DNA of 64,000 nucleotides from Rhodomicrobium sp. (GTDB lineage: Bacteria; Pseudomonadota; Alphaproteobacteria; Rhizobiales; HXMU1428-3): assembly GCA_021604665.1 (NCBI GenBank), contig BQJK01000001.1, forward strand, positions 956,419-1,020,418, read 5' to 3'. Both the position numbers and the translations under genes were made by a program. This document shows, in pieces, positions 6,174 through 64,000 of the stretch. Each line of letters opens with the position of its first letter. The first letter of the stretch is position 1. The notes beneath the pieces are model-generated. The model was given only the letters and a program-made list of their open reading frames with translations. It was not told where the DNA came from and did no database searches.

Positions 6174-6294
6174 ACCAAAACCCTCTAGGTATAGTGCTAA
6201 TAAATCTGAGCTTTAATTCAAGATTATGGCACCCCCAAGATATACGCCCTTACGAACAAAAGCTAAAAGCAAAACAAGAGGGTTCACGCCCCGA

Positions 6295-7158
6295 TTAAAC
6301 AGTACCACGAAGCAGGGTCATATAAATTCGCAGCGGATTAAGCGACGAAATAATTGGCCGTGCAAGACGCCGATCTTCAATTGCAGTTTTAAGTAAGGCT
6401 GGCACGATCATCCAACAAGAGAAATACACGCGCTGTTTTTTCTTCACCATACCAAGCCTGGCCTTAATATCCCAGCTAATCACCACCCCGCCATCAGCAA
6501 TTGCATAGAGCGCTTTGCCAATCCGCACAGCAATCTCAGGAGAAGGCGCATCGCTGGTCATAAAATCCTGATGTGTCAACCCATGAGCAGACAGCATATC
6601 AACCGGCAGTGGCTGCATCCCGGCTTGTAAAGTCAAAGGCAATTGAGCAATCGCAGCTGTTACCCCAATCGACATACCCGCCTCACTCGCCAATAAAACT
6701 GTTTGCGGCGTGGAACATCCCGTGATGAGCAAAGCCGCCCGCAACAATCCTCCATAGCGCTGGTCCTGTATTTCAAAAAATGTCGCCATATCTGGCACTG
6801 GCGTTTTTTGAATATCAAACCTGAAACTATCAATAATCCCAGTCATGGCACCGCGCAGCAACGGGCCCCGCTCCGCCAAACAATCCCCAAGCCCATCAGC
6901 AACCGGGTGACCAACCCGTTCACCGCGCTCAAGTTTCACAAGGCCATCCCGCCACCATTGCATCCTGATCTCACCCAGCAGCGGTTCATCACTTTTAAAG
7001 GGGATTTGAGCAACTTCATGAAAAAAACCATAGAGCCAGTAAAGCTCGTCGCGTGTCTCTTTAGGTGAAAACCGCACAGATAAATAAGAGGCATAATCAA
7101 GCCGACGAAGCCGCTTCACTACAGCCTCAAGTTCTGAAAGCTCTTCCCGCTTTGCCAT
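6295..7158 (-). CDS. Squalene/phytoene synthase family protein (NDUFAF6-like complex I assembly factor)
   Basis: LYGFFHEVAQIP...EPLLGEIRMQWWRD...GHPVAD; conserved position downstream of the Mth938 gene and secDF. Confidence 0.85.
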   Translation of the reverse strand: MAKREELSELEAVVKRLRRLDYASYLSVRFSPKETRDELYWLYGFFHEVAQIPFKSDEPLLGEIRMQWWRDGLVKLERGERVGHPVADGLGDCLAERGPLLRGAMTGIIDSFRFDIQKTPVPDMATFFEIQDQRYGGLLRAALLITGCSTPQTVLLASEAGMSIGVTAAIAQLPLTLQAGMQPLPVDMLSAHGLTHQDFMTSDAPSPEIAVRIGKALYAIADGGVVISWDIKARLGMVKKKQRVYFSCWMIVPALLKTAIEDRRLARPIISSLNPLRIYMTLLRGTV

Positions 7159-49295: not shown

Positions 49296-51491
<2,196 letters not shown>

Positions 51492-52502: not shown

Positions 52503-53234
52503 CTACTCAGCGACCGCTTCAAAAAGATCAGGATAACGCGCCTTAACTTCAGCCCGTTTCGCCTCAATAGCCGCTTCATTCGCCCGGTCCGTCGGCAAAA
52601 TTTTCAAACGCTCACGCACACGGCCAGGCCGGGTGGTAATTAATAAAACCTCTTCACCAAGTTCCACAGCTTCACGCATGTCATGGGTCACCATCACAGC
52701 GGTTATCGGGTTGTCTTCCCACAATCGGCGCACAAGCTGGCGCAGCCTCGAAGCGGTTGGTGCATCTAGCGAAACAAAAGGTTCATCAAGCAATAATAGA
52801 TTTGGTTTCGTTGCAAACGCCCGCGCAATGCCAACCCGGCGCGCCAGACCAAGCGACAATTCAGAGGGAAAATTATCAACCAGCTCAGTTAGCCCCATCG
52901 CCTCCATCAGCTGGCTAAATTCAGCCTCACCAAACGTTGGGTCAGCCCGGAGCATCACATTGTCCCGAACGGAGCGCCATGGCAAAAGGCGCGGCTCTTG
53001 AAACACAAATCCAATTTTCGGCGGGGTCTCCCACTCCACCTTGCCTTTATAATGCGGGTCCAGCCCGGCAAGTATTCTGAGCAAGGTAGATTTACCGCAG
53101 CCAGATGGGCCAAACAAAACAGTGAAACTGTTTTTAGTCAGGGTGAAATGCGTATCCTCAAGCGCTAAAATCTTACCGCCATTGGCACTCGTATATATTT
53201 TTTCGTCTATATGAACCTTAAGCAGGCTCTGCAC
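52503..53234 (-). CDS. ABC transporter ATP-binding protein, NitT/TauT family
   Basis: GPSGCGKST, variant signature LSLGLARRV, LLDEPF; GTG start overlaps permease end. Confidence 0.9.
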   Translation of the reverse strand: MQSLLKVHIDEKIYTSANGGKILALEDTHFTLTKNSFTVLFGPSGCGKSTLLRILAGLDPHYKGKVEWETPPKIGFVFQEPRLLPWRSVRDNVMLRADPTFGEAEFSQLMEAMGLTELVDNFPSELSLGLARRVGIARAFATKPNLLLLDEPFVSLDAPTASRLRQLVRRLWEDNPITAVMVTHDMREAVELGEEVLLITTRPGRVRERLKILPTDRANEAAIEAKRAEVKARYPDLFEAVAE

Positions 53235-53964
53235 GCCAACGTGTTGCATAACGCTCCCACGGTTGAATAAACACAATTTCAATCACCAGCATCACCGCAA
53301 TAAAAGCAACGGAATAAGCAAAGATCGCCGCCACATTGAAGAGCTGAAAATAAGTATGGAGTTGGAAGCCAACCCCATCAGAGCGGCCGATAAACTCAAC
53401 CACCAAAACAATCTTCCATATCAATGACAAACCAGACCGCCCCGCCGCCGCTAAAAATGGCTGCAACTGCGGAAAGATAATATGCTGATAGCGCTGCAAA
53501 TTCGTATAACGGAAACTAGCCGCCATCTCATCCAGCTCAGCACTGAGAGACCGCGCGCCCTCGCGCAGCATCACCGCCACATTCGGCACCTTATTGATAA
53601 CAACAGCAAGAATGGCCGCTGTCTCCGTCAGGCCGCCCCAGATATAGCATAGGAATATGATAACAAGAGCAGGCACATTGAGAAAGAACACAAGCCAGGG
53701 GTCAAAAATGCCATTGAATAAATGGCTCCGCCCCATAGCAAGGCCAATCACCGTGCCAAGCAACATAGCAATCACAAAGCTGGCCATAACCCGCCATAGA
53801 GTAATAAACAGATGATAGAATAAATCCCCGTTTTGCACCTCATCGATCAGCGTCATGAATACTTTTTCAGGGCCGGGAAATAACCTGTCATTCACCAGCC
53901 AGGCCACAACAAGCCACAGCACCAAAAAACCAACAATCGATAACAGAGGATAGAACCGCCGCAT
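53218..53964 (-). CDS. ABC transporter permease, NitT/TauT family
   Basis: Six TM segments, EAA-like loop LDEMAASFR, EFIGRSDGVG. Confidence 0.9.
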   Translation of the reverse strand: MRRFYPLLSIVGFLVLWLVVAWLVNDRLFPGPEKVFMTLIDEVQNGDLFYHLFITLWRVMASFVIAMLLGTVIGLAMGRSHLFNGIFDPWLVFFLNVPALVIIFLCYIWGGLTETAAILAVVINKVPNVAVMLREGARSLSAELDEMAASFRYTNLQRYQHIIFPQLQPFLAAAGRSGLSLIWKIVLVVEFIGRSDGVGFQLHTYFQLFNVAAIFAYSVAFIAVMLVIEIVFIQPWERYATRWRAEPA

Positions 53965-53966
53965 AA

Positions 53967-54995
53967 CTACTCAGCCTTTTGCTCGGTTTCAACCGGTTGA
54001 GAGATATCACCCGTCAGCCAGAAGGTACCAGGACTTAGCGTTTTGGAATTGCCCACAAGTTTGCGGCCTCCAAGTTCCACCAGTACATTAAAAAGCCTTG
54101 CAACATCCGCCCGCTCAACAACAAGCGGCCGCCTGAGAATACCTATGCGAAATGATTTTTTCAGCGCTTCAAATGTTGCCTCATCTTCAGCCTTCATACG
54201 GGGGCGAATTTCCTCCCAGATGGCTTCATCCTTATCAAGAATTGCAATAGCATCCTGAATAGCTGAGAGAAACCCTCTTATTTGATCTTCATTGGCAGCG
54301 GCCCATTTATCGTGAAAAGCAAAGCCAATAGCGACAGTCGGGCCAGAAGTGCCAAGTCCGGTCATCACATCACCAACAGATAAAAGTGAGCGAAAACCTT
54401 TAGCTTCCAAACGCGCACTAAAATGCCAAAAGTTCAGAATAGCATCAAACTCACCGCGGATCATTTTCTGTGTCAACAAGGGCGGCGCCCCGTAAACAGG
54501 TGTCACGATCTCAGCAAGATCAACGCCAATAGTTTGCTTGGCGTAAGCGCGAAGGAACAACCAGCTTTTATCAAGCGGACCACCGGCAACGCCGAGTGTT
54601 TTACCCTTTAAATCCTCAAGCGACTTAATCGGAGACTCTGCCGCCACCATCAAATGACCAACAGCTGAACTATAAGGCACCATGGCAAAATCTGCGCCTT
54701 CAGCACGTTGCCTCGATATCCAGGTCCAGTCAGTTGCAACAATATCAGCCGAACCGCCCTGCAGAGCAATCTTGGCCCCATTCGTGTTCGCAAGCGGAAT
54801 AACACTCAACTTAAAGTTATGCTTCTCATCAAGTTTGCGCAGCTTCACCGTGTCCAGAACCCAGTTAACCGTTCCAAATTTTAAAGTCGCAACTCTGAGG
54901 GCATCAGCTGCTTGAGCTGGATTATTGCAGGCACTGCCGAAGCTAAGACATAAAACAACTAGGATGAGAGAGGTTAATCGCAAAATTGTCGTCAT
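53967..54995 (-). CDS. ABC transporter substrate-binding protein, NitT/TauT family (subtype seen with PQQ-ADH / lanthanide-uptake loci)
   Basis: Signal peptide; KFGTVNW, DWTWISRQR, PYSSAVG, GGPLDKSWL, YGAPPLL, LNFWHFSARLE; subtype call from memory. Confidence 0.8.
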   Translation of the reverse strand: MTTILRLTSLILVVLCLSFGSACNNPAQAADALRVATLKFGTVNWVLDTVKLRKLDEKHNFKLSVIPLANTNGAKIALQGGSADIVATDWTWISRQRAEGADFAMVPYSSAVGHLMVAAESPIKSLEDLKGKTLGVAGGPLDKSWLFLRAYAKQTIGVDLAEIVTPVYGAPPLLTQKMIRGEFDAILNFWHFSARLEAKGFRSLLSVGDVMTGLGTSGPTVAIGFAFHDKWAAANEDQIRGFLSAIQDAIAILDKDEAIWEEIRPRMKAEDEATFEALKKSFRIGILRRPLVVERADVARLFNVLVELGGRKLVGNSKTLSPGTFWLTGDISQPVETEQKAE

Positions 54996-55153
54996 ATATA
55001 TAGACACCTATTCGATAGAATTTGTTATGTCTGAAGGGCTGAACGCCCTTTGCTGGCGGTCTTTTACTAATTTATTTAGCTTTATTTTTGGCCATAATTT
55101 TCAGACCAAACTTTTCTCTAGAGAGACCATGCTTCCTGTAACCACCTATCTTT

Positions 55154-55183
55154 AAACCCAGTCACTTAAAACCCAGTCACTTA
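55154..55183. repeat. Perfect 15-bp tandem duplication AAACCCAGTCACTTA x2
   Basis: 55154-55168 and 55169-55183, in the divergent promoter region. Confidence 0.95.
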
Positions 55184-55446
55184 TCATGATTGTCTAGTTC
55201 AAAACCATCATCACCCTAAAATGGATAGGGGTAGCACTGGAAATTGCACAACCACATATTACATATGCACCTAACGTTTATGCACTTATTAAACTGGTTA
55301 CGTAAAAACTGGCGTTAACTAACTTAAGGTTCAAGCCAGAATGGCTAATATAGACAGAGTGGCGAAACTATCCAGATGGTTGGCACATATGCCAACCCCA
55401 CTAGCCTCAATAATCAATAACCTAACGTAGGGGTCTTGAGAAAATA

Positions 55447-56154
55447 ATGAGAAACAAGATCTTAAGCCTATTCATCTTTATGATGGGGCTATTCGCAGCA
55501 CTTACCACACCGCTCCTCACAGCGCGGGCTGACGACACCTCAGAAAAGCAACGCCAAACCAACACCCCAAGCCTCAAAACCCCAAAGCGCGAATTAAAAA
55601 TCACAAAAGGTGCTGAGCCACCAATAATTTGGCACAAACGATACCGCCACATAGATAAAGTAACAGGGCTAAGAACCGCCTATTACCGTGCGGCGCTCCC
55701 CCCCAAAGTGCCCGGCGGCACACGAATAGATGTAAAACAGGCCTATGATCATTACAAAAACAAAGACGCGCTTTTTATTGATGTAATGGCCCACACAGGC
55801 ACCGGCCCGGACCCAATAGATGGCTATTGGCGGCTTTCAGAACCGCGAAGCAATATACCGGATAGCTATTGGCTGGCAGATGTTGGCACAGGCACCCTCA
55901 CACCTGAAATGCAGCACTATTATAAAGAGAACCTAAGGAAGATAACAGGCGGCGATAAAACAAAAGCGCTCATTCTCTATTGCACCGCAGATTGCTGGAT
56001 GGCGTGGAATGCCGTGCGGCGAGCGTCTCGCCTTGGTTACACAAATCTGCTCTGGTTCCCAGAAGGCAGCGACGAATGGAGCGCCGCCGGTTATCCATTA
56101 AAAAACTCTATCCCGATACCGCTGGACTTAGATGAAAACATAGAGGAAGAATGA
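55447..56154 (+). CDS. Exported rhodanese-like protein, PQQ-dependent catabolism-associated CXXCW type
   Basis: Signal peptide; YYRAALP..VPGG, FIDVM, IPDSYWLADVG, LYCTADCWMAWNAVRRA, WFPEGSDEW. Confidence 0.85.
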   Translation: MRNKILSLFIFMMGLFAALTTPLLTARADDTSEKQRQTNTPSLKTPKRELKITKGAEPPIIWHKRYRHIDKVTGLRTAYYRAALPPKVPGGTRIDVKQAYDHYKNKDALFIDVMAHTGTGPDPIDGYWRLSEPRSNIPDSYWLADVGTGTLTPEMQHYYKENLRKITGGDKTKALILYCTADCWMAWNAVRRASRLGYTNLLWFPEGSDEWSAAGYPLKNSIPIPLDLDENIEEE

Positions 56155-56384
56155 ATTCACATTCTTCAGCCTGGCCCCCAAATCATTTGGCAGCAGCCTT
56201 CAAACAAAACAGCTGGAAGATGAATCACATGCTGTTTTAGAGTTACAGCCATCACATTCACGTGAAGCATTCGACTTTACGCCAATATCAGAGAGCATTT
56301 AGCAAGCTCCGCGCTAGACCAGCTCGCTCCCCCCCCATAAACTTCATTACAATATTCTCAAATCTGCACACCACAACTGTGCAG

Positions 56385-56414
56385 AACACAACAATGCGTA
56401 ACACAACACTGCGT
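56385..56414. repeat. 15-bp tandem duplication AACACAACA(A/C)TGCGT x2 next to an 8-bp hairpin
   Basis: Units 56385-56399 and 56400-56414; TCTGCACA/TGTGCAGA at 56363-56385. Confidence 0.85.
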
Positions 56415-56654
56415 AATAAAGATACCAGCAGTGAAACCATACCTGGTCCCAGCACCGCATTAGGAACTGCCCTCTAAAGCATTGCGCAACCGACTTAACA
56501 AACAAATGAATGAGGCAACACAGAACCAAGCCACTACAGAGATAATTCACAGCCCCTCAAGGGCCGTAAGACAGCAAGTAAATAGAGATAAAACCACCAA
56601 GCTATCGCAACAATAAATAACAGGGCCAAAACAGGCCCATTGGGAGCATAATAA

Positions 56655-57263
56655 ATGACGACGCCCTCCACTATAATAAAGAGAAGATCAAAACGCCTGT
56701 TTCTCCCAGCGCTCGCCCTCCTGGCGGCGCTGAGTACCCTGCCAATAACAACAGCCTCCTTTGCAGCAGATGACACTGCAAGCGAAACAAAAAAAGTCAC
56801 CCTCATTGGCAAGGATGGCAGCCGCCTGGAAATTGCCAGCGTCACCCTTACAAAGACTGAGGAAGGCGAAAAAATCAGCATAAACTTCATCGAAGATCGC
56901 TTTTCAGAACATTTCCTCTCCATGCGGCCTTTCAAGTGCATAGATGGCGACCAAACCCTCTGTCACTTGCCCTACCCCTATAAAACCAAAGACATTATCA
57001 CCAAAGATAATTTGATGGACCTCGAATATAAGCTGCTCTTCATCCATAAGGGTGCCGGCGAATATGGCATTAACTTTTGGAATGGCGTTTATTATCGCCT
57101 AAAACGCGAACATGATGGCAGCTTCACAGGTGTCGTATGGGAAACAGATATGGACGAGCTTGCCGCCCCGCCGGAAGTAGAATACTCGCGCCCAATCGGT
57201 GGTGATGACCTTTCAGAAGGCGCTGAAGGAAAGCACCGCTATCCACTTGTAGAAATCAAATAG
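56655..57263 (+). CDS. Conserved exported protein of unknown function
   Basis: Signal peptide (RR-containing n-region); HFLSMRPFKC, DLEYKLLF, YGINFWNGVYY, ETDMDELAAPP motifs that I associate with PQQ-ADH neighbourhoods. Confidence 0.75.
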   Translation: MTTPSTIIKRRSKRLFLPALALLAALSTLPITTASFAADDTASETKKVTLIGKDGSRLEIASVTLTKTEEGEKISINFIEDRFSEHFLSMRPFKCIDGDQTLCHLPYPYKTKDIITKDNLMDLEYKLLFIHKGAGEYGINFWNGVYYRLKREHDGSFTGVVWETDMDELAAPPEVEYSRPIGGDDLSEGAEGKHRYPLVEIK

Positions 57264-58131
57264 CTTGATCGTCAAAGGTAATGAATATAGCAGCAGCAAC
57301 TGGGATAACTGACGGCAAGTTGGCACAAAGCAACCGCACTTTCATGTCATTATATGCAATTATAACATATGTGACCAAGCGCTAGGGGCAAACACTATAC
57401 CTTCGCATTAAAGCCCCCTTTAGAGCCTCGTCGAGCCTGTTGAGTTATGCTAACATCGACAACAAGGAACCATGATATTCATGTGTTTTCATGCCTGTAG
57501 CTTCTAAAACATTTGGTGCAGAATCAATCGCTTAAAACCTCACCGGCAAGGTAAAATTTAAACCTCCTTACCGATGAACAGAGCCCGGATTGAGACCAAA
57601 CCATTTTCAGACCTTGTTTGTATGAGACTACAAAACAATGAGACCATGAAAGTGTATTTAAAAGAGTTCCAGTTACTAGTCTGTAATTCATCCACGAAAG
57701 GGAGGTTGTCATAAATAACCCTAAAGGGCTTACTCACTAAATCTCAGAATTTCCCTATAGCTCATCATCTATTATTGTTCCCAATCGCTTGGGGCCACAA
57801 ATACCGGCCCTGCTAACAAGCCACAAAGAACACTGGATTGAACTGAGCTGGATTTATTTAGCGTCTGCTAAATTAAGAGCCGTGATTTTAGTGATAGACC
57901 TGACAAAAACGTCAAAACGCATGTGGTTATTTAAAGACATATAACAAAGGCAGTCGCCGCTATTACTGAGCAATCAGCTAAGCACCGGCACCATAAAGCC
58001 TTGAGACCTCTCAATAAAAAGAAGATGAAAAAACAGAATTTGGCCGTCGCTAGCATAACAGCTGCTGGGGCCAAACTGTACATAAGAGAGAAGTTGCTTT
58101 TAAAGCATAGAAAAAATTAAGGAGGGCGCTC

Positions 58132-58608
58132 ATGCAGCTCGCGCTGGTATTAGATCCCGCAAAGTGCACATCGTGCAAACAATGCGAAATGGCTTGTGCC
58201 TACGAGAACGAACAAACATTCAACCCGGCTAAATCCCGAATTCGTATTTTCGATTTCCATGAAGATGGCCGCTTTGTACCCTACACCTGCACCCAGTGCG
58301 ATGAAGCCTGGTGTCAGCAAGCCTGCCCGGTTAACGCCATCACCACAGACCCTGCCACCGGCGTTAAGCTGGTACATGATAATCTCTGCGTTGGCTGTAA
58401 AGTCTGCACAATCGCCTGCCCATTCGGCACCGTGAATTACAATGCAGCAACCGGCAAAGTAATCAAATGCGACCTATGCATGGGCGATCCAGCCTGCGCG
58501 AAAGCCTGCCCGACTGGCGCCATCACCTATTCAGATGTTGAGCAAGCAGGGTTTGACAAAATGAGAGCCTGGGCCGCCAAAACGGATTCCGGCGCACAAG
58601 CAACGTAA
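58132..58608 (+). CDS. aorA: 4x[4Fe-4S] polyferredoxin subunit of tungsten aldehyde oxidoreductase
   Basis: 16 Cys in four ferredoxin motifs; C-terminal helix GFDKMRAWAAK; AAGGAGG SD. Confidence 0.9.
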   Translation: MQLALVLDPAKCTSCKQCEMACAYENEQTFNPAKSRIRIFDFHEDGRFVPYTCTQCDEAWCQQACPVNAITTDPATGVKLVHDNLCVGCKVCTIACPFGTVNYNAATGKVIKCDLCMGDPACAKACPTGAITYSDVEQAGFDKMRAWAAKTDSGAQAT

Positions 58609-58672
58609 ACTATATGCGCCCATACCTGGCACAGCTTACGGCAAATAAAATTTCGTCAAGGGAGATGTCCTC

Positions 58673-60526
58673 ATGGCTTGGACACGAAAAGTACTAAGAA
58701 TTAATCTCACTTCAGGTGAGATCACAACTGAGCCCCTAAATATGGAATGGGCTCAAAAATATCTCGGTCAGCGCGGTCTGGCGACAAAATACCTAGTGGA
58801 AGAAACAGACCCGAAGGTTGATCCGCTTTCACCAGATAACAAAATGATCTTCGCAACCGGCCCGCTTACCGGCACATGCGCCTCAACAGGCGGCCGTTAT
58901 TCTGTCATCACCAAAGGCCCGCTTACAGGCGCAATCGCCTGCTCCAATTCAGGCGGTTACTTCGGACCAGAGCTTAAATTCTCTGGCTATGACATGGTCA
59001 TCCTTGAAGGCAAATCACCAAAACCGGTTTACCTCTCAATCTTTGATGACAAAGTAAAACTTCGCGATGCGTCTCATCTTTGGGGCAAATCTGTGTGGGA
59101 TACTGATGATGCTATTAAAGCTGAAGTCCAGGATCCGCTCGCCCACGTTGCCGCCATTGGCGTCTCCGGCGAAAAAGGTGTGCTCTACTCTTGCATCGTC
59201 AACAACAAGCACCGGGCAGCCGGTCGCTCAGGTGTTGGTGCTGTAATGGGCTCCAAAAACCTGAAGGCAATTGTCGCCAGAGGGTCAAACGGTGTCACCG
59301 TTGAGCAGCCACAGGAATTCTTTGCAGCCACTGATGCCGGCAAAAAAGTTCTGAAAGAGAATGCCGTGACAGGTGAAGGCCTCCCAGCTTTCGGCACGCA
59401 GGTTCTAATGAACGTCATCAACGAAACAGGCGCCATGCCAACCCGCAACTGCCGGGATGTTCAGTTTGAAGGCGCGCATGACATTTCAGCTGAAGCCATG
59501 GCAGAGCCGCGCCGCTCAGATGGCAAAGCTAACCTTTCAACAAACCAGGGCTGTTTTGCCTGCACCATCGCCTGTGGTCGTGTTTCCACTATCGACCCGC
59601 AGCACTACACCCTGCAAGGCGAAGGCAAGGATCAATATAAGCACGCCTCAGGTGGCCTTGAATATGAAGCAGCCTGGGCCCTTGGTTCCGCCACAGGTGT
59701 TAACGATCTAGACGCGCTGACATATGCTCAGTTCCTTTGCAACGAACATGGCCTCGACCCGATTTCACTCGGCGCGACCATTGCAGCAGCTATGGACCTC
59801 TATGAAGAGGGTGTCATCAACCAGGATATCACTGGTGGGCTAGACCTGCGCTTCGGCAATGCAAAAGCATTGACAGAAGCAGTAGAGCTAACCGGCACAG
59901 CTGAAGGTTTTGGTGTCGAGCTTGGCCTCGGCTCTGCCCGCCTATGTGCCAAATATGGCCGCCCGGATCTATCCATGACGGTTAAAAAGCAGGAATTCCC
60001 TGCTTATGACCCACGCGGCATTCAAGGCATGGGCCTCACCTATGCCACTTCCAACCGTGGTGCTTGTCACCTTCGCTCCTACACAGTGTCATCAGAAGTG
60101 CTTGGCATTCCTGAAAAAACTGACCCACTGGTAACTGAAGGTAAGGCCGCCCTTGTGAAAGCCTTCCAGGACGCCACAGCCGCTGTCGATAGCGCAGGTA
60201 TCTGCGTCTTCACGACCTTCGCCTGGACAATGGAAGACATTGCCCCTCAGGTGAATGCAGCTTGTGAAGGCAATTGGTCCGTTGATGCACTGATGGAAGT
60301 CGGTGAACGCATCTGGAATCTTGAGCGTCAGTATAATATGGCCGCTGGTATCCTCGGCGACCAGGACACCCTACCGCAGCGTCTTCTTAAAGAAGCCGCT
60401 AAAGTTGGCCCGGCTCAAGGACTGGTGAATGGCCTCGATAAAATGCTGCCAGAATATTACGAGCTTCGTGGCTGGTCTACAGATGGCACACCAACAGGTG
60501 AAACGATCTCTCGTTTAGGCCTGTAA
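58673..60526 (+). CDS. aorB: Tungsten-containing aldehyde:ferredoxin oxidoreductase catalytic subunit (AOR/WOR family)
   Basis: KGPLTGAIACSNSGG, HRAAGRSGVGAVMGSKNLKA, CFACTIACGR, EYE, GLDPIS, VKKQEFPAYDPRG, SNRGACHL, YYELRGW. Confidence 0.95.
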   Translation: MAWTRKVLRINLTSGEITTEPLNMEWAQKYLGQRGLATKYLVEETDPKVDPLSPDNKMIFATGPLTGTCASTGGRYSVITKGPLTGAIACSNSGGYFGPELKFSGYDMVILEGKSPKPVYLSIFDDKVKLRDASHLWGKSVWDTDDAIKAEVQDPLAHVAAIGVSGEKGVLYSCIVNNKHRAAGRSGVGAVMGSKNLKAIVARGSNGVTVEQPQEFFAATDAGKKVLKENAVTGEGLPAFGTQVLMNVINETGAMPTRNCRDVQFEGAHDISAEAMAEPRRSDGKANLSTNQGCFACTIACGRVSTIDPQHYTLQGEGKDQYKHASGGLEYEAAWALGSATGVNDLDALTYAQFLCNEHGLDPISLGATIAAAMDLYEEGVINQDITGGLDLRFGNAKALTEAVELTGTAEGFGVELGLGSARLCAKYGRPDLSMTVKKQEFPAYDPRGIQGMGLTYATSNRGACHLRSYTVSSEVLGIPEKTDPLVTEGKAALVKAFQDATAAVDSAGICVFTTFAWTMEDIAPQVNAACEGNWSVDALMEVGERIWNLERQYNMAAGILGDQDTLPQRLLKEAAKVGPAQGLVNGLDKMLPEYYELRGWSTDGTPTGETISRLGL

Positions 60527-60537
60527 CAATTAAAAAA

Positions 60538-60569
60538 GCGGCCCCAGCCATAAGCGCGGGGCCGTTTTT
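60538..60569 (+). terminator. Terminator-like hairpin between aorB and aorC
   Basis: GCGGCCCC-N12-GGGGCCGT followed by T4. Confidence 0.65.
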
Positions 60570-60776
60570 CAACCTAATAAATACATAAGAAATAGCGATA
60601 GGTTGTTCACCTCTTAACAGAAGGCAAAAATGCCTAAAGAGGTCTTTGAATATAGGGGAAGTGTTCTTTTAACTGGCCGGGAATAGGACGCCTGGGCAAA
60701 ACCATCTTGCCAGACGACCCGGCCCCCTCATTCAAAAGACGGTTCAACCGACAACATATATTAAAGGAATGCTGCC

Positions 60777-62033
60777 ATGCATTATCTTGTTTTGGGGGCC
60801 GGCCCTGCTGGCGTAACAGCCGCGGAAACCCTACGCAAACATGACAAATCCGCCAAAATCACTCTCCTCGGCGGCGAGCCGGAACCACCCTATTCTCGCA
60901 TGGCCATCCCCTATTATCTGATTGAAAAAGTCGGTGAAGACGGCACATATCTCCGCCAGACAGAAGGCCATTATGAACAGCATGGCATTGATTATGTCCA
61001 TGGCACTGCTGTTGCGCTCCAGGGCAAGGCAAAACGCCTGAAGCTAGAAGATGGCTCCGAACTCCAGTATGACAAACTACTGATCTGTACTGGCGCCAGC
61101 CCAATCTCCCCGCCGGTCCCGGGCCTTGATCGCCCCGGCATACATAATTGCTGGACCCTGGAAGATGCCCGCCACATCGCAGAGCTCTCACAAAAAGGCG
61201 ACCCTGTCGTACTAATGGGCGCAGGCTTCATCGGCTCCATCATCCTCGAAGCGCTCGCCCTTAAAGGCGTAAACCTAACAGTGGTTGAGATGGGAGACCG
61301 CATGGTCCCACGCATGCTGGATGAAACAGCCGGCAACATGCTGAAAGATTGGTGCATAGATAAAGGCGTCCGCGTCCTGACCAGCACCCAGATTTCAGAA
61401 GTCACAGATGGCTCTGAAGGCTTAACAGTTCACACCAAAGGCGGCGAAGCGCTAGATGCAAGATTATTGGTTGTCGCCGCGGGCGTGCAACCCAATATCA
61501 GCTTCCTTGCCTCAAGCGGTGTAGAAATCGACCACGGCATCATCGTTGATCAATATATGCGCACCAGCGTACCAGATGTTTACGCCGCAGGTGATGTTTG
61601 CCAGGCAATCGACTTCTCAACTCAAAAAGCTGAAATGCTGGCCATTCAGCCTGTAGCCGTAGAGCATGGCCGCATTGCCGCACAAAACATGGCCGGCAAA
61701 CCAACCCCCCATGAAGGCAGCCTGAATATGAACGTGCTTGAAGCCATGGGCCTCATCACAGCCTCCTTCGGTCTCTGGATGGGCGTTGAAGGCGGCGATA
61801 GCTGCCGCATGCATGACCCGGAGAACAACCGCTACTTACGGCTGGAGTTTGATGGCAACAAACTGGTGGGCGGCCAATCTGTAGGGTTAACCGAACATGT
61901 CGGCATGTTGCGCGGCCTCATCCAAACCGAGCTGGACCTTGGCGAATGGAAGAATAAGCTCATGAAATCACCAGAGCGCCTACCAGAAGCATATGTCGCT
62001 GTAGCCCAGCACAACTTTAACATTTCAGCTTAA
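60777..62033 (+). CDS. aorC: FAD/NAD(H)-dependent oxidoreductase subunit of AOR
   Basis: GAGPAG FAD motif, GAGFIG NAD motif, YAAGDV; AAGGA SD; position after aorB. Confidence 0.88.
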   Translation: MHYLVLGAGPAGVTAAETLRKHDKSAKITLLGGEPEPPYSRMAIPYYLIEKVGEDGTYLRQTEGHYEQHGIDYVHGTAVALQGKAKRLKLEDGSELQYDKLLICTGASPISPPVPGLDRPGIHNCWTLEDARHIAELSQKGDPVVLMGAGFIGSIILEALALKGVNLTVVEMGDRMVPRMLDETAGNMLKDWCIDKGVRVLTSTQISEVTDGSEGLTVHTKGGEALDARLLVVAAGVQPNISFLASSGVEIDHGIIVDQYMRTSVPDVYAAGDVCQAIDFSTQKAEMLAIQPVAVEHGRIAAQNMAGKPTPHEGSLNMNVLEAMGLITASFGLWMGVEGGDSCRMHDPENNRYLRLEFDGNKLVGGQSVGLTEHVGMLRGLIQTELDLGEWKNKLMKSPERLPEAYVAVAQHNFNISA

Positions 62034-62086
62034 TAATAAGGCTTTAAAAGCATAATAAGCAGTGATTACACACTGCACTTTCTCTC

Positions 62087-62123
62087 ACCGCCTCAGGGCA
62101 TTGCCCTGTTGGCGGTTTTTTTT
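62087..62123 (+). terminator. Intrinsic terminator after aorC
   Basis: ACCGCC-T-CAGGGC-ATT-GCCCTG-TT-GGCGGT followed by a long T-run. Confidence 0.85.
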
Positions 62124-62269
62124 AAGTTAAACTCTCTAAGGAACCGACTTGTAAATCTCATAGTTTTTTCAGAGCTTTATCATTTTCTGTTGAGTTTAAG
62201 TCACGACATCTACCCATTTTCGTTTAAAAAACACAATCCTGCCTCAATAAGCTTCCCCCCCTTGCAAAT

Positions 62270-62285
62270 GTTAAGTATCCATTAA
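62270..62285. promoter_or_regulatory. CtrA-consensus box upstream of the acidic beta-barrel gene
   Basis: GTTAA-GTATCCA-TTAA (TTAA-N7-TTAAC on the minus strand), 70 bp before the ATG, adjacent to TTGCAA. Confidence 0.45.
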
Positions 62286-62355
62286 AGTCAACGTATCATG
62301 GCGTTGCTACTTTAAAACAAGCAGCCTGTTACCATTACTTTTTGGGGGATAATTA

Positions 62356-63180
62356 ATGAATAAATACGCAATCGCATCACTCACATGCGCCTCTTTGCTG
62401 CTCGCAGCAAATCCAGCCTACGCCATCAGCCTTGAAGAAGCTGGCGTCGAAAAAGGCGAAGTCGAACTTCAGTATGAAGCAACCTACACTGATAAAAACG
62501 CCGAAGGTGCCTATGAGCATGAAGAAGAAATCGAAGTTCAAATGGGCCTGACAGACTGGTTGCTGCTCACCGTTGGCTTCGGTTTTGAGGAAGAGGAAGG
62601 TGAACGGGATTTTGAATTTTCCGAACTTGAGGGCTCAGTTCAAATTGAACTGGTTGATCCTGAAAAAGGTGGATTTGGATTTGCCCTTCTCGCTGGCTTT
62701 AGCAAAGAGTTCGCCGCAGAATCGGGAGAAGAGGACGAAAACACCTACAAGATTGGTGCCATTGCCGAGCACCACTACAATAAGTGGCTGTTCAGAGGCA
62801 ATCTGTTTTACATCTCCGATATTGACGGCGACGGCGAAGAAGAATTTGATGGCGTAGAATATGCCTATCAAATCAAATACGACGTTAGCGAAAAGCTCGG
62901 CGTCGGCGTTGAAGGCTACGGCACTCACCAGGAATTTGATGACCCAGGCGAAGATGATGTTGACCAGCACATGGTTGGCCCGGTTCTCTACTATAGCTTT
63001 GAACGTGGAAATGATACCAGCCGCCACGCGTCCATTAAAGATGTAGCTGAAATTGGCGGCGAAGACGGTGATGACGAAGATGAAGGCATCGAATTCGAGC
63101 TTCAGGCCGGCGTGCTGTTTGGCACAACGGACGACACCGCTGATGTGACTTATAAATGGGGCCTTGAGATCGAATTCTAG
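62356..63180 (+). CDS. Highly acidic outer-membrane beta-barrel protein (putative porin)
   Basis: Signal peptide ending AYA, alternating amphipathic strands, C-terminal YKWGLEIEF; about 69 Asp/Glu versus about 15 Lys/Arg in 274 aa (hand count). Confidence 0.8.
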   Translation: MNKYAIASLTCASLLLAANPAYAISLEEAGVEKGEVELQYEATYTDKNAEGAYEHEEEIEVQMGLTDWLLLTVGFGFEEEEGERDFEFSELEGSVQIELVDPEKGGFGFALLAGFSKEFAAESGEEDENTYKIGAIAEHHYNKWLFRGNLFYISDIDGDGEEEFDGVEYAYQIKYDVSEKLGVGVEGYGTHQEFDDPGEDDVDQHMVGPVLYYSFERGNDTSRHASIKDVAEIGGEDGDDEDEGIEFELQAGVLFGTTDDTADVTYKWGLEIEF

Positions 63181-63218
63181 GTTTTTCTCCTGGCACAGTA
63201 AATTTTCCTGGCACAGCC

Positions 63219-63254
63219 AAAAGCAGCAAGTCATCTCCGGCTTGCTGCTTTTTT
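63219..63254 (+). terminator. Intrinsic terminator after the porin gene
   Basis: AAAAGCAGCAAG-N10-CTTGCTGCTTTTTT. Confidence 0.85.
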
Positions 63255-63323
63255 GTTGGCTTATTGTTTATTGAGTTCTACGCGCCCAGCCATTAAAATC
63301 GGATGAAATGGAGAGACTTGATA

Positions 63324-63575
63324 ATGGATGTAACCCTGAAACTATATGCAACCCTAACGCCCTTCCTGCCCTCAGGTGCGGAGAAAAACCAGATTTCTAT
63401 AGATGTCTCAGAAGGCAGCTCAGTCATGGACATTGTAGATAAATACCAGCTGCCAAAAGAAAGCTGCCACCTCATTCTGGTAAATGGCAATTACACGCCT
63501 TTAGCTTCTGCTGACCAGAAAATCCTTGTAGAAGGTGACACCCTGGCTATATGGCCCCCCGTTGCCGGTGGGTAG
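63324..63575 (+). CDS. moaD: MoaD/ThiS ubiquitin-like sulfur carrier (AorD-like)
   Basis: LILVNG, GDTLAIWPPVAGG C-terminal di-glycine; GGAGA SD before ATG 63324. Confidence 0.9.
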   Translation: MDVTLKLYATLTPFLPSGAEKNQISIDVSEGSSVMDIVDKYQLPKESCHLILVNGNYTPLASADQKILVEGDTLAIWPPVAGG

Positions 63576-63855
63576 CCCATATCCCCATTCTATATATATT
63601 GGCTATTACCGATATAAAGCGGCGGTTTAAAAAACGAGAGGGTTAAGAATCTAACGGCTTTAAAACAACTGGGCACCCCTGGTTTTATTAGAGAGCTCTC
63701 AGAAAACCCCTCATTTTCTAAGAATAAGCCGTTTTATTGCATTTTTTAGGCTCAGATTCTGTTTTATGCCTAAGAGCTGATGCGCTATATTACAGACAAG
63801 TTAAAACACAGAGCCAAAGCCATTATGCTAAGGCTCACCAACGGGAGATAGCATT

Positions 63856-63945
63856 ATGAAAAATTGGACAACACCACAAGTTTCTGAAACTGAAACAGGC
63901 ATGGAAGTAACTTCTTATATGCCTGCTGAACTTGACCGCGCATAA
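63856..63945 (+). CDS. pqqA: PQQ precursor peptide PqqA (29 aa, MKNWTTPQVSETETGMEVTSYMPAELDRA)
   Basis: GGGAG SD 8 nt upstream; W-x-x-P leader and GMEVTSY core with the E-x3-Y pair; too short for the ORF track. Confidence 0.9.
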   Translation: MKNWTTPQVSETETGMEVTSYMPAELDRA

Positions 63946-63968
63946 GCGATTAAGTTTCTATATATGAA

Positions 63969-64000
63969 AACCGGCGGTTGAGAGAAATCTCCCGCCGGTT
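63969..64000 (+). terminator. Hairpin after pqqA (terminator or stabilising stem)
   Basis: AACCGGCGG...GAGA-GAAA-TCTC-CCGCCGGTT; any T-tail lies beyond the window edge. Confidence 0.7.

Follow-up and report, generated by a model that had tools for sequence, protein, structure and literature searches.

The 64,000-nucleotide stretch of Rhodomicrobium sp. DNA analyzed here (GenBank assembly GCA_021604665.1, contig BQJK01000001.1, positions 956,419 to 1,020,418 of the forward strand; hereafter the window, meaning this whole stretch) carries the genes aorA, aorB and aorC, whose products resemble the three subunits of the tungsten aldehyde oxidoreductase (AOR) of Aromatoleum aromaticum EbN1, AOR_Aa (PDB 8C0Z; PMC6365974, PMC9295118, PMC10413684). 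The best explanation, to which we assign a probability of about 85%, is that these genes specify a functional aldehyde oxidoreductase of the AOR_Aa subclade that is linked to nicotinamide adenine dinucleotide (NAD) and is very probably tungsten-dependent. A preliminary description of the same DNA was correct on the identity of the enzyme and wrong on its rarity. Since the enzyme and its AorA tail are standard in the genus and in many other Proteobacteria, the window contributes an ordinary new member of this group.

Identity and conserved residues of AorABC

The three genes are intact open reading frames (ORFs) that follow each other in the order aorA, aorB, aorC, with the following features:

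58132..58608, forward strand: aorA, subunit of 158 amino acids (aa) with four [4Fe-4S] clusters (232 bits to 8c0z_C)
58543..58605, forward strand: C-terminal segment of aorA, codons for AorA residues 138-158 (alignment with 8c0z_C)
58673..60526, forward strand: aorB, 617-aa catalytic subunit with tungsten (W)-bis-pyranopterin and one [4Fe-4S] cluster (950 bits to 8c0z_A)
60777..62033, forward strand: aorC, 418-aa NAD-reducing subunit containing flavin adenine dinucleotide (FAD) (409 bits to 8c0z_E)

The earlier reading of a complete Aromatoleum-type AorABC is borne out by these intact ORFs, by their coordinates and order, and by a search of all PDB chains, in which the top match of each subunit was a chain of 8C0Z, the cryo-electron microscopy structure of the A. 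aromaticum enzyme. The E values against the 8C0Z chains (5e-285 for AorB, 2.5e-68 for AorA and 2e-121 for AorC) place the match of AorABC far beyond chance. AorB scored 950 bits against 8C0Z, compared with 715 bits against WOR1 (9MQX) and 599 bits against the AOR of P. furiosus. Pfam detected 4Fe-4S dicluster domains in AorA, AFOR_N and AFOR_C in AorB (PF02730, 276 bits; PF01314, 452 bits), and Pyr_redox_2 in AorC. aorB is the sole AOR-family gene of the host genome.

The residues named in the structure paper (PMC10413684) were mapped onto the window proteins via HMMER alignments. All 16 named residues of AorB are identical, comprising the four cysteines of the FS0 cluster (C294, C297, C301 and C511, aligned to the FS0 ligands C295, C298, C302 and C509 of AOR_Aa) and twelve pterin/Mg-binding and catalytic residues (R75, N92, G94, R181, A182, E332, D362, Y445, H466, D506, I510 and V512, whose AOR_Aa counterparts are R75, N92, G94, R181, A182, E331, D361, Y443, H464, D504, I508 and V510). 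AorC retains R41, M42, R179 and the Gln at AOR_Aa position 294. The four ferredoxin motifs previously noticed in AorA were confirmed as four Cys motifs (C12/15/18/22, C53/56/61/65, C86/89/92/96 and C113/116/122/126), and an alignment of 34 sequences showed no variation at any of the 16 cysteines. In the same alignment, P9, F42, W60 and A95 of AorA, the contacts of the AorC tail in the A. aromaticum structure (PMC10413684), are invariant or nearly so.

The AorA C-terminal helix and the proposed mechanism

AorA residues 4-157 align with 8c0z_C without gaps, including the C-terminal stretch of about 20 residues (138-158), and the C-terminal helix motif G-F-D-K-M-R-A-W-A-A-K is present. The string AGFDKMRAWAAK, with which AorA had been said to end, is indeed found at residues 139-150, but it is not terminal; the protein continues for eight residues (TDSGAQAT), like A. 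aromaticum AorA. In A. aromaticum, where AorA forms the backbone of the filament, deletion of the AorA C-terminal helix abolishes filaments, and the last 20 AorA residues have already been described as highly conserved across the subclade (PMC10413684). The 2025 structure of WorABCSL displays the same helix-mediated stacking, which was argued to be general for this small-subunit family (PMC12318220).

We also aligned the AorA C-termini from 80 loci of species-representative genomes. The pattern G-(L/F)-x-(K/R)-M-(R/K/Q)-x-(W/H)-A was found in 70/70 proteobacterial AorA orthologues aligned, and the helix motif was missing only in two outgroup sequences from Desulfuromonadia (41-44% identity). 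With a motif this general and a conservation already published, the retention of the helix does not deserve the emphasis that the preliminary description gave it. In a gammaproteobacterial subgroup (L042, L043, L047, L049, L056, L060 and L068), the AorA tail is shortened and stops after M-R-A-H-A-A-Q-S, with His in place of Trp; filament behaviour may differ in this subgroup.

In the proposed mechanism, AorB would oxidize a broad range of aldehydes at its W-bis-pyranopterin center, and the electrons would pass from cluster FS0 of AorB through the four AorA clusters to the FAD of AorC and on to NAD+. Several AorAB protomers stacked on one AorC would give Aor(AB)nC oligomers, which are probable because AorA keeps the C-terminal helix segment. 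The sequence itself establishes that the genes are intact, belong to the AOR_Aa clade and keep the residues examined. From the homology with AOR_Aa (about 70% identity) we infer which metal is bound, how long the oligomers grow, whether H2 and oxygen are handled as in AOR_Aa, and what the enzyme does in the cell; that it contains tungsten, forms filaments and reacts with H2 is plausible on this basis.

Clade membership and distribution

The AorB sequences closest to that of the window (88-90% identical) come from metagenome-assembled genomes (MAGs) of Hyphomicrobiaceae/Hyphomicrobiales. In a tree of AorB sequences computed with FastTree, AorB of the window falls within the Aromatoleum-containing clade: the window sequence belongs to a Hyphomicrobiales clade of 15 rows (support 97), which is nested in a 72-row Pseudomonadota clade including Aromatoleum, with Desulfuromonadia as the outgroup. 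By its sequence, the enzyme truly belongs to the three-subunit clade of the Aromatoleum type (AOR_Aa). About 58 loci maintain the gene order aorA-B-C-D.

The taxon labels of the AorB tree require 4 changes, compared with 23 in shuffles. AorB was detected in 12 of the 14 genomes of the host GTDB genus (86-90% identity), with 11/11 among the high-quality ones, and in 43 of the 301 sampled genomes of the host order, representing 22 of 124 genera. Because the AorB tree tracks taxonomy and the gene is common in the genus, the host lineage is not an unexpected one, contrary to what had been suggested. Horizontal acquisition was considered and rejected, as the tree follows taxonomy, nearly all genomes of the genus have the gene, and the G+C content of the operon (0.50-0.55) is near that of the genome (0.49). 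To judge from the tree and this distribution, the genus has acquired the gene set by vertical inheritance and carries it as a rule. The present locus adds little to what is known, apart from placing AorABC in the core gene content of a marine or biofilm genus of Hyphomicrobiales and showing how common this type is among Alpha- and Gammaproteobacteria.

Two further observations concern the family at large. A second, distinct clade of AorB-like paralogues (52-57% identity) is found in several genomes of the order (e.g. G045:C48, G286:C1:2797611 and G036:C11) and sometimes co-occurs with the AOR_Aa type in one genome. In addition, three loci (L016, L027 and L049) have aorA and aorB with no aorC detectable alongside (in L016, aorD directly follows aorB), and these may be variants without the NAD-linking subunit.

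Gene neighborhood and the aorB-aorC spacer

The following features lie between and around the aor genes:

55447..56154, forward strand: gene upstream of aorA for a CXXCW motif protein associated with catabolism dependent on pyrroloquinoline quinone (PQQ) (TIGR03865, 170 bits, cut-off 128)
60534..60569, forward strand: terminator-like hairpin with a U-run, 8 nucleotides (nt) past the aorB stop codon (folding free energy dG -22.6 kcal/mol, z -4.75)
62087..62124, forward strand: strong hairpin with U8 after aorC, resembling an intrinsic terminator (102-nt stretch, dG -34.1, z -5.14)
62356..63180, forward strand: gene between aorC and aorD for an acidic 274-aa protein resembling an outer-membrane barrel (weak Pfam hits to outer-membrane proteins)
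63303..63575, forward strand: aorD, 90-aa MoaD/ThiS-like protein ending in ...AGG (Pfam Ub-Mut7C and ThiS)

The spacer between aorB and aorC measures 250 nt (60527-60776), and the hairpin stands at its start; none of 200 shuffled sequences (0/200) folded as well. Across loci L002-L080, the median aorB-aorC spacer is 101 nt, versus 14 nt between aorA and aorB and 20 nt between aorC and aorD. Among the 52 loci whose spacer is 45 nt or longer, which are not phylogenetically independent, the first 70 nt folded with z < -2 in 28 and z < -3 in 19. The hairpin sequences are unrelated between subclades. Eleven loci, one of them Rhodocyclaceae, have almost no aorB-aorC spacer, so the feature is frequent and not universal. 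Our hypothesis is that a partial terminator or stabilizing hairpin in the spacer would lead to more AorAB than AorC, which would fit the (AB)nC composition. A bolder proposal has two parts: that the long spacer with its hairpin is a device conserved in many members of the clade that lowers AorC relative to AorAB and so sets the (AB)n:C ratio and hence filament length, and that the genus has recruited the enzyme into a PQQ gene island, where it would act in the cytoplasm as partner to alcohol dehydrogenases of the periplasm. Taken together, we regard this as rather doubtful. If an intercistronic hairpin does control the subunit ratio, filament length in enzymes of this family would be open to simple genetic control.

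The aor locus is embedded in an island of PQQ genes that covers 52503-64000 of the window and L082:2586-5820, with the TIGR03865 CXXCW gene upstream and pqqBCDE downstream, and the arrangement is identical in L002 and L003. Together with the five genes of the host genome for PQQ alcohol dehydrogenases that exceed the family cut-off, this order would fit an operon that in this genus is dedicated to the second step in the PQQ-dependent oxidation of alcohols and is no general detoxifier: periplasmic PQQ dehydrogenases would yield aldehydes, and cytoplasmic AorABC would turn these into acids while conserving NADH. We consider such a dedicated role possible but the lesser prospect. The PQQ linkage is limited to the genus, and the other Hyphomicrobiaceae loci (L004-L012) are without PQQ genes beside aor. 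Moreover, none of the adjacent genes encodes a PQQ dehydrogenase, aorABC is set apart from its neighbors by strong terminators, and a literature search found no paper combining tungsten AOR, PQQ and methylotrophs. The role that we favor, and infer for AorABC, is the oxidation or detoxification of aldehydes from the PQQ alcohol dehydrogenases of the host.

The aorD gene is orthologous to the gene immediately 3' of aorC in about 58 loci, and in L002 and L003 the gene for the outer-membrane-barrel-like protein occupies the equivalent position. Most loci have after aorD the gene aorE, which encodes a protein of ~95 aa ending in ...QRGGG; this is not so in the window nor in L002/L003. The AorE family has no Pfam model, and the unlinked aorE homologue of the host (see below) is flanked by an OmpA-family gene and a methylase gene. 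Directly upstream of aorA, a 202-aa protein (56655-57263) with a signal-peptide-like N-terminus is 52-66% identical in L001-L003; this secreted-type protein has zero Pfam or NCBIfam matches. A gene for the catalase-peroxidase KatG (49296-51488, 1297 bits) lies 7 kb upstream of aorABC, whose family is oxygen-sensitive.

An Rfam scan of 56000-64000 gave no molybdenum or tungsten cofactor (Moco/Tuco) riboswitch and no other family above threshold. The sigma54 promoter consensus had one match in the window, inside aorC and at chance level, and the near-matches upstream of aorA are wrongly spaced. When the region upstream of aorA was aligned with those of three close relatives, the ribosome-binding site alone was conserved. 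The window was also correctly described as encoding no tungstate transporter, MoeA or sigma54 activator, all of which are located elsewhere in the genome: MoeA is encoded at C6:15186 and C1:574073, contig C4 carries a TupA-like gene and contig C2 modABC, and none of the six sigma54 activators falls within C1:956419-1020418.

Host genome and cofactor supply

The host is a Hyphomicrobiales MAG of 2.91 Mb in 6 contigs (49% GC, 98% complete), apparently derived from a biofilm metagenome. Among public sequencing runs, two from biofilm metagenomes are the only ones that contain the whole stretch, and they may be its source; no RNA run containing it was found. The genome encodes the respiratory nitrate reductase NarG with NarK, an NAD-type formate dehydrogenase, and a [NiFe]-hydrogenase cluster with sensor and regulator genes; from these and the PQQ dehydrogenases, the host is therefore a facultatively nitrate-respiring, methylotroph-like organism. 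Nitrate respiration is a lifestyle shared with Aromatoleum and represents the kind of physiology in which AOR_Aa was found.

The genome possesses the full gene set for pyranopterin biosynthesis, which had been named as a point to check: moaA, moaC, moaE (6 kb before the window), two mogA/moaB-type genes and two moeA genes. Oxyanion uptake is represented by a complete modABC. Because genes for pyranopterin synthesis and molybdate/tungstate uptake are present, none of the grounds for refutation given in the preliminary description that can be checked in the sequence applies. The suggested genome search for a tungstate transporter was successful in part, in that a TupA-like binding protein was found, but this is an orphan. 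Its gene adjoins one for a regulator with HTH_17 and PBP_like (PF12727) domains on the opposite strand (L093:5095-6063 and 6180-7133), and the two may form a tungstate/molybdate sensing pair. One of the two MoeA paralogues may be specialized for tungsten insertion.

Weighing of the functional assignment

Several observations weigh against the assignment to a tungsten-dependent, filament-forming AOR_Aa-type enzyme. The residues just before the AorA helix are E-Q here versus D-W in A. aromaticum. In an AlphaFold2 model of AorA (34-row alignment), a helix spans 136-155 with a mean predicted local distance difference test score (pLDDT) of 49, and the model was rejected as too unreliable to count as confirmation of the helix. 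The last six residues of AorC cannot be aligned with 8c0z_E, and P419, M420 and R424 have no counterpart. The TupA-like protein has TupA as its sole NCBIfam match, with 236 bits below the cut-off of 400, and its gene (C4, L093) has no permease or ATPase gene adjacent. Finally, aorD is present but outside the operon, behind the inserted outer-membrane protein gene, and the aorE homologue is unlinked (104 aa, C2:507373-507687, ending in ...FRRGGG; tblastn E 3e-9).

The AorC tail also bears on the chance that a genuine AorABC assembles only to AorABC or Aor(AB)2C, with no long filaments. In A. aromaticum, the tail aids nucleation and reaches the second and third AorA and AorB through P419, M420 and R424 (PMC10413684); here it differs. 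Oligomer length is not fixed by the helix alone: purified AOR_Aa is mostly Aor(AB)2C (PMC10413684), and growth of WorABCSL stops at 3:1, where the helix of the third small subunit is folded back (PMC12318220). Yet the AorC tail is variable throughout the clade, and for this reason we do not count it among the features that define the family. The helix motif of AorA, by contrast, is conserved, as are P9, F42, W60 and A95, and the main AorC-AorA interface region is well conserved. Short assemblies appear a serious minority possibility beside the Aor(AB)nC oligomers that we favor.

It is improbable that the enzyme acts in vivo mainly in reverse or as a hydrogenase, with H2 reducing NAD+ or acids. 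AOR_Aa does so in vitro (PMC9295118, PMC10413684), and all active-site residues are conserved; however, H2 use is regarded as a side activity in A. aromaticum, the host already has a standard [NiFe] uptake hydrogenase, and no checkable sequence determinant of H2 reactivity is known. Molybdenum in place of tungsten is highly improbable. It would fit with modABC as the only complete oxyanion transporter found, but only the YdhV subclade of the family prefers molybdenum (review PMC12096430), AorB is about 70% identical to an enzyme whose tungsten was proven by inductively coupled plasma mass spectrometry (PMC6365974), and the host has the TupA-like protein beside its HTH+PBP_like regulator as well as two MoeA paralogues.

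Comparison with known systems

The closest known system is AOR_Aa. The window shares with it the identical three subunits and gene order, an AorB that is about 70% identical over its full length, the helix motif M-x-A-W-A-A-K, the cofactor, FS0, catalytic and FAD residues, and aorD together with an aorE homologue in the genome. The differences are found in AorC, which is about 50% identical and has six unrelated residues at its end, and in the arrangement of the genes: the window has a terminator-like hairpin in a 250-nt aorB-aorC spacer, an outer-membrane protein gene is inserted ahead of aorD, aorE is on another contig, and there is no nearby sigma54 activator. The host and surroundings also differ, with an alphaproteobacterial methylotroph-like organism and neighboring PQQ genes. 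By analogy with AOR_Aa, the window could provide a second, alphaproteobacterial source of an oxygen-tolerant, NAD-linked, acid-/aldehyde-converting tungsten enzyme.

AOR_Mt of Moorella thermoacetica likewise has a three-gene operon of the aorABC type. However, its AorA has no C-terminal extension and is predicted to be filament-free (review PMC12096430), whereas the window AorA has the extension. WorABCSL of Acetomicrobium mobile (9MQX, PMC12318220) has large and small subunits homologous to those of the window enzyme (715 and 115 bits), and its small subunits polymerize via a C-terminal helix. Unlike the window enzyme, WorABCSL joins an electron-bifurcating module of the BfuABC type, not AorC, and reduces ferredoxin as well as NAD.

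More distant systems share single elements. P. furiosus AOR (1AOR) has the same catalytic fold and a W-bis-pyranopterin plus [4Fe-4S] site (599 bits), but it is a homodimer without AorA/AorC, ferredoxin-dependent, hyperthermophilic and highly oxygen-sensitive. The filaments of hydrogen-dependent CO2 reductase (HDCR; HycB3/HycB4, 7QV7) are also built of polyferredoxins that polymerize via C-terminal helices, with weak similarity to AorA (E 1e-17 to 1e-18). These polyferredoxins are not orthologous to AorA, and HDCR bears hydrogenase and formate dehydrogenase modules. Among these systems, AorABC of the window is a routine, well-conserved orthologue of the structurally and biochemically characterized A. 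aromaticum enzyme.

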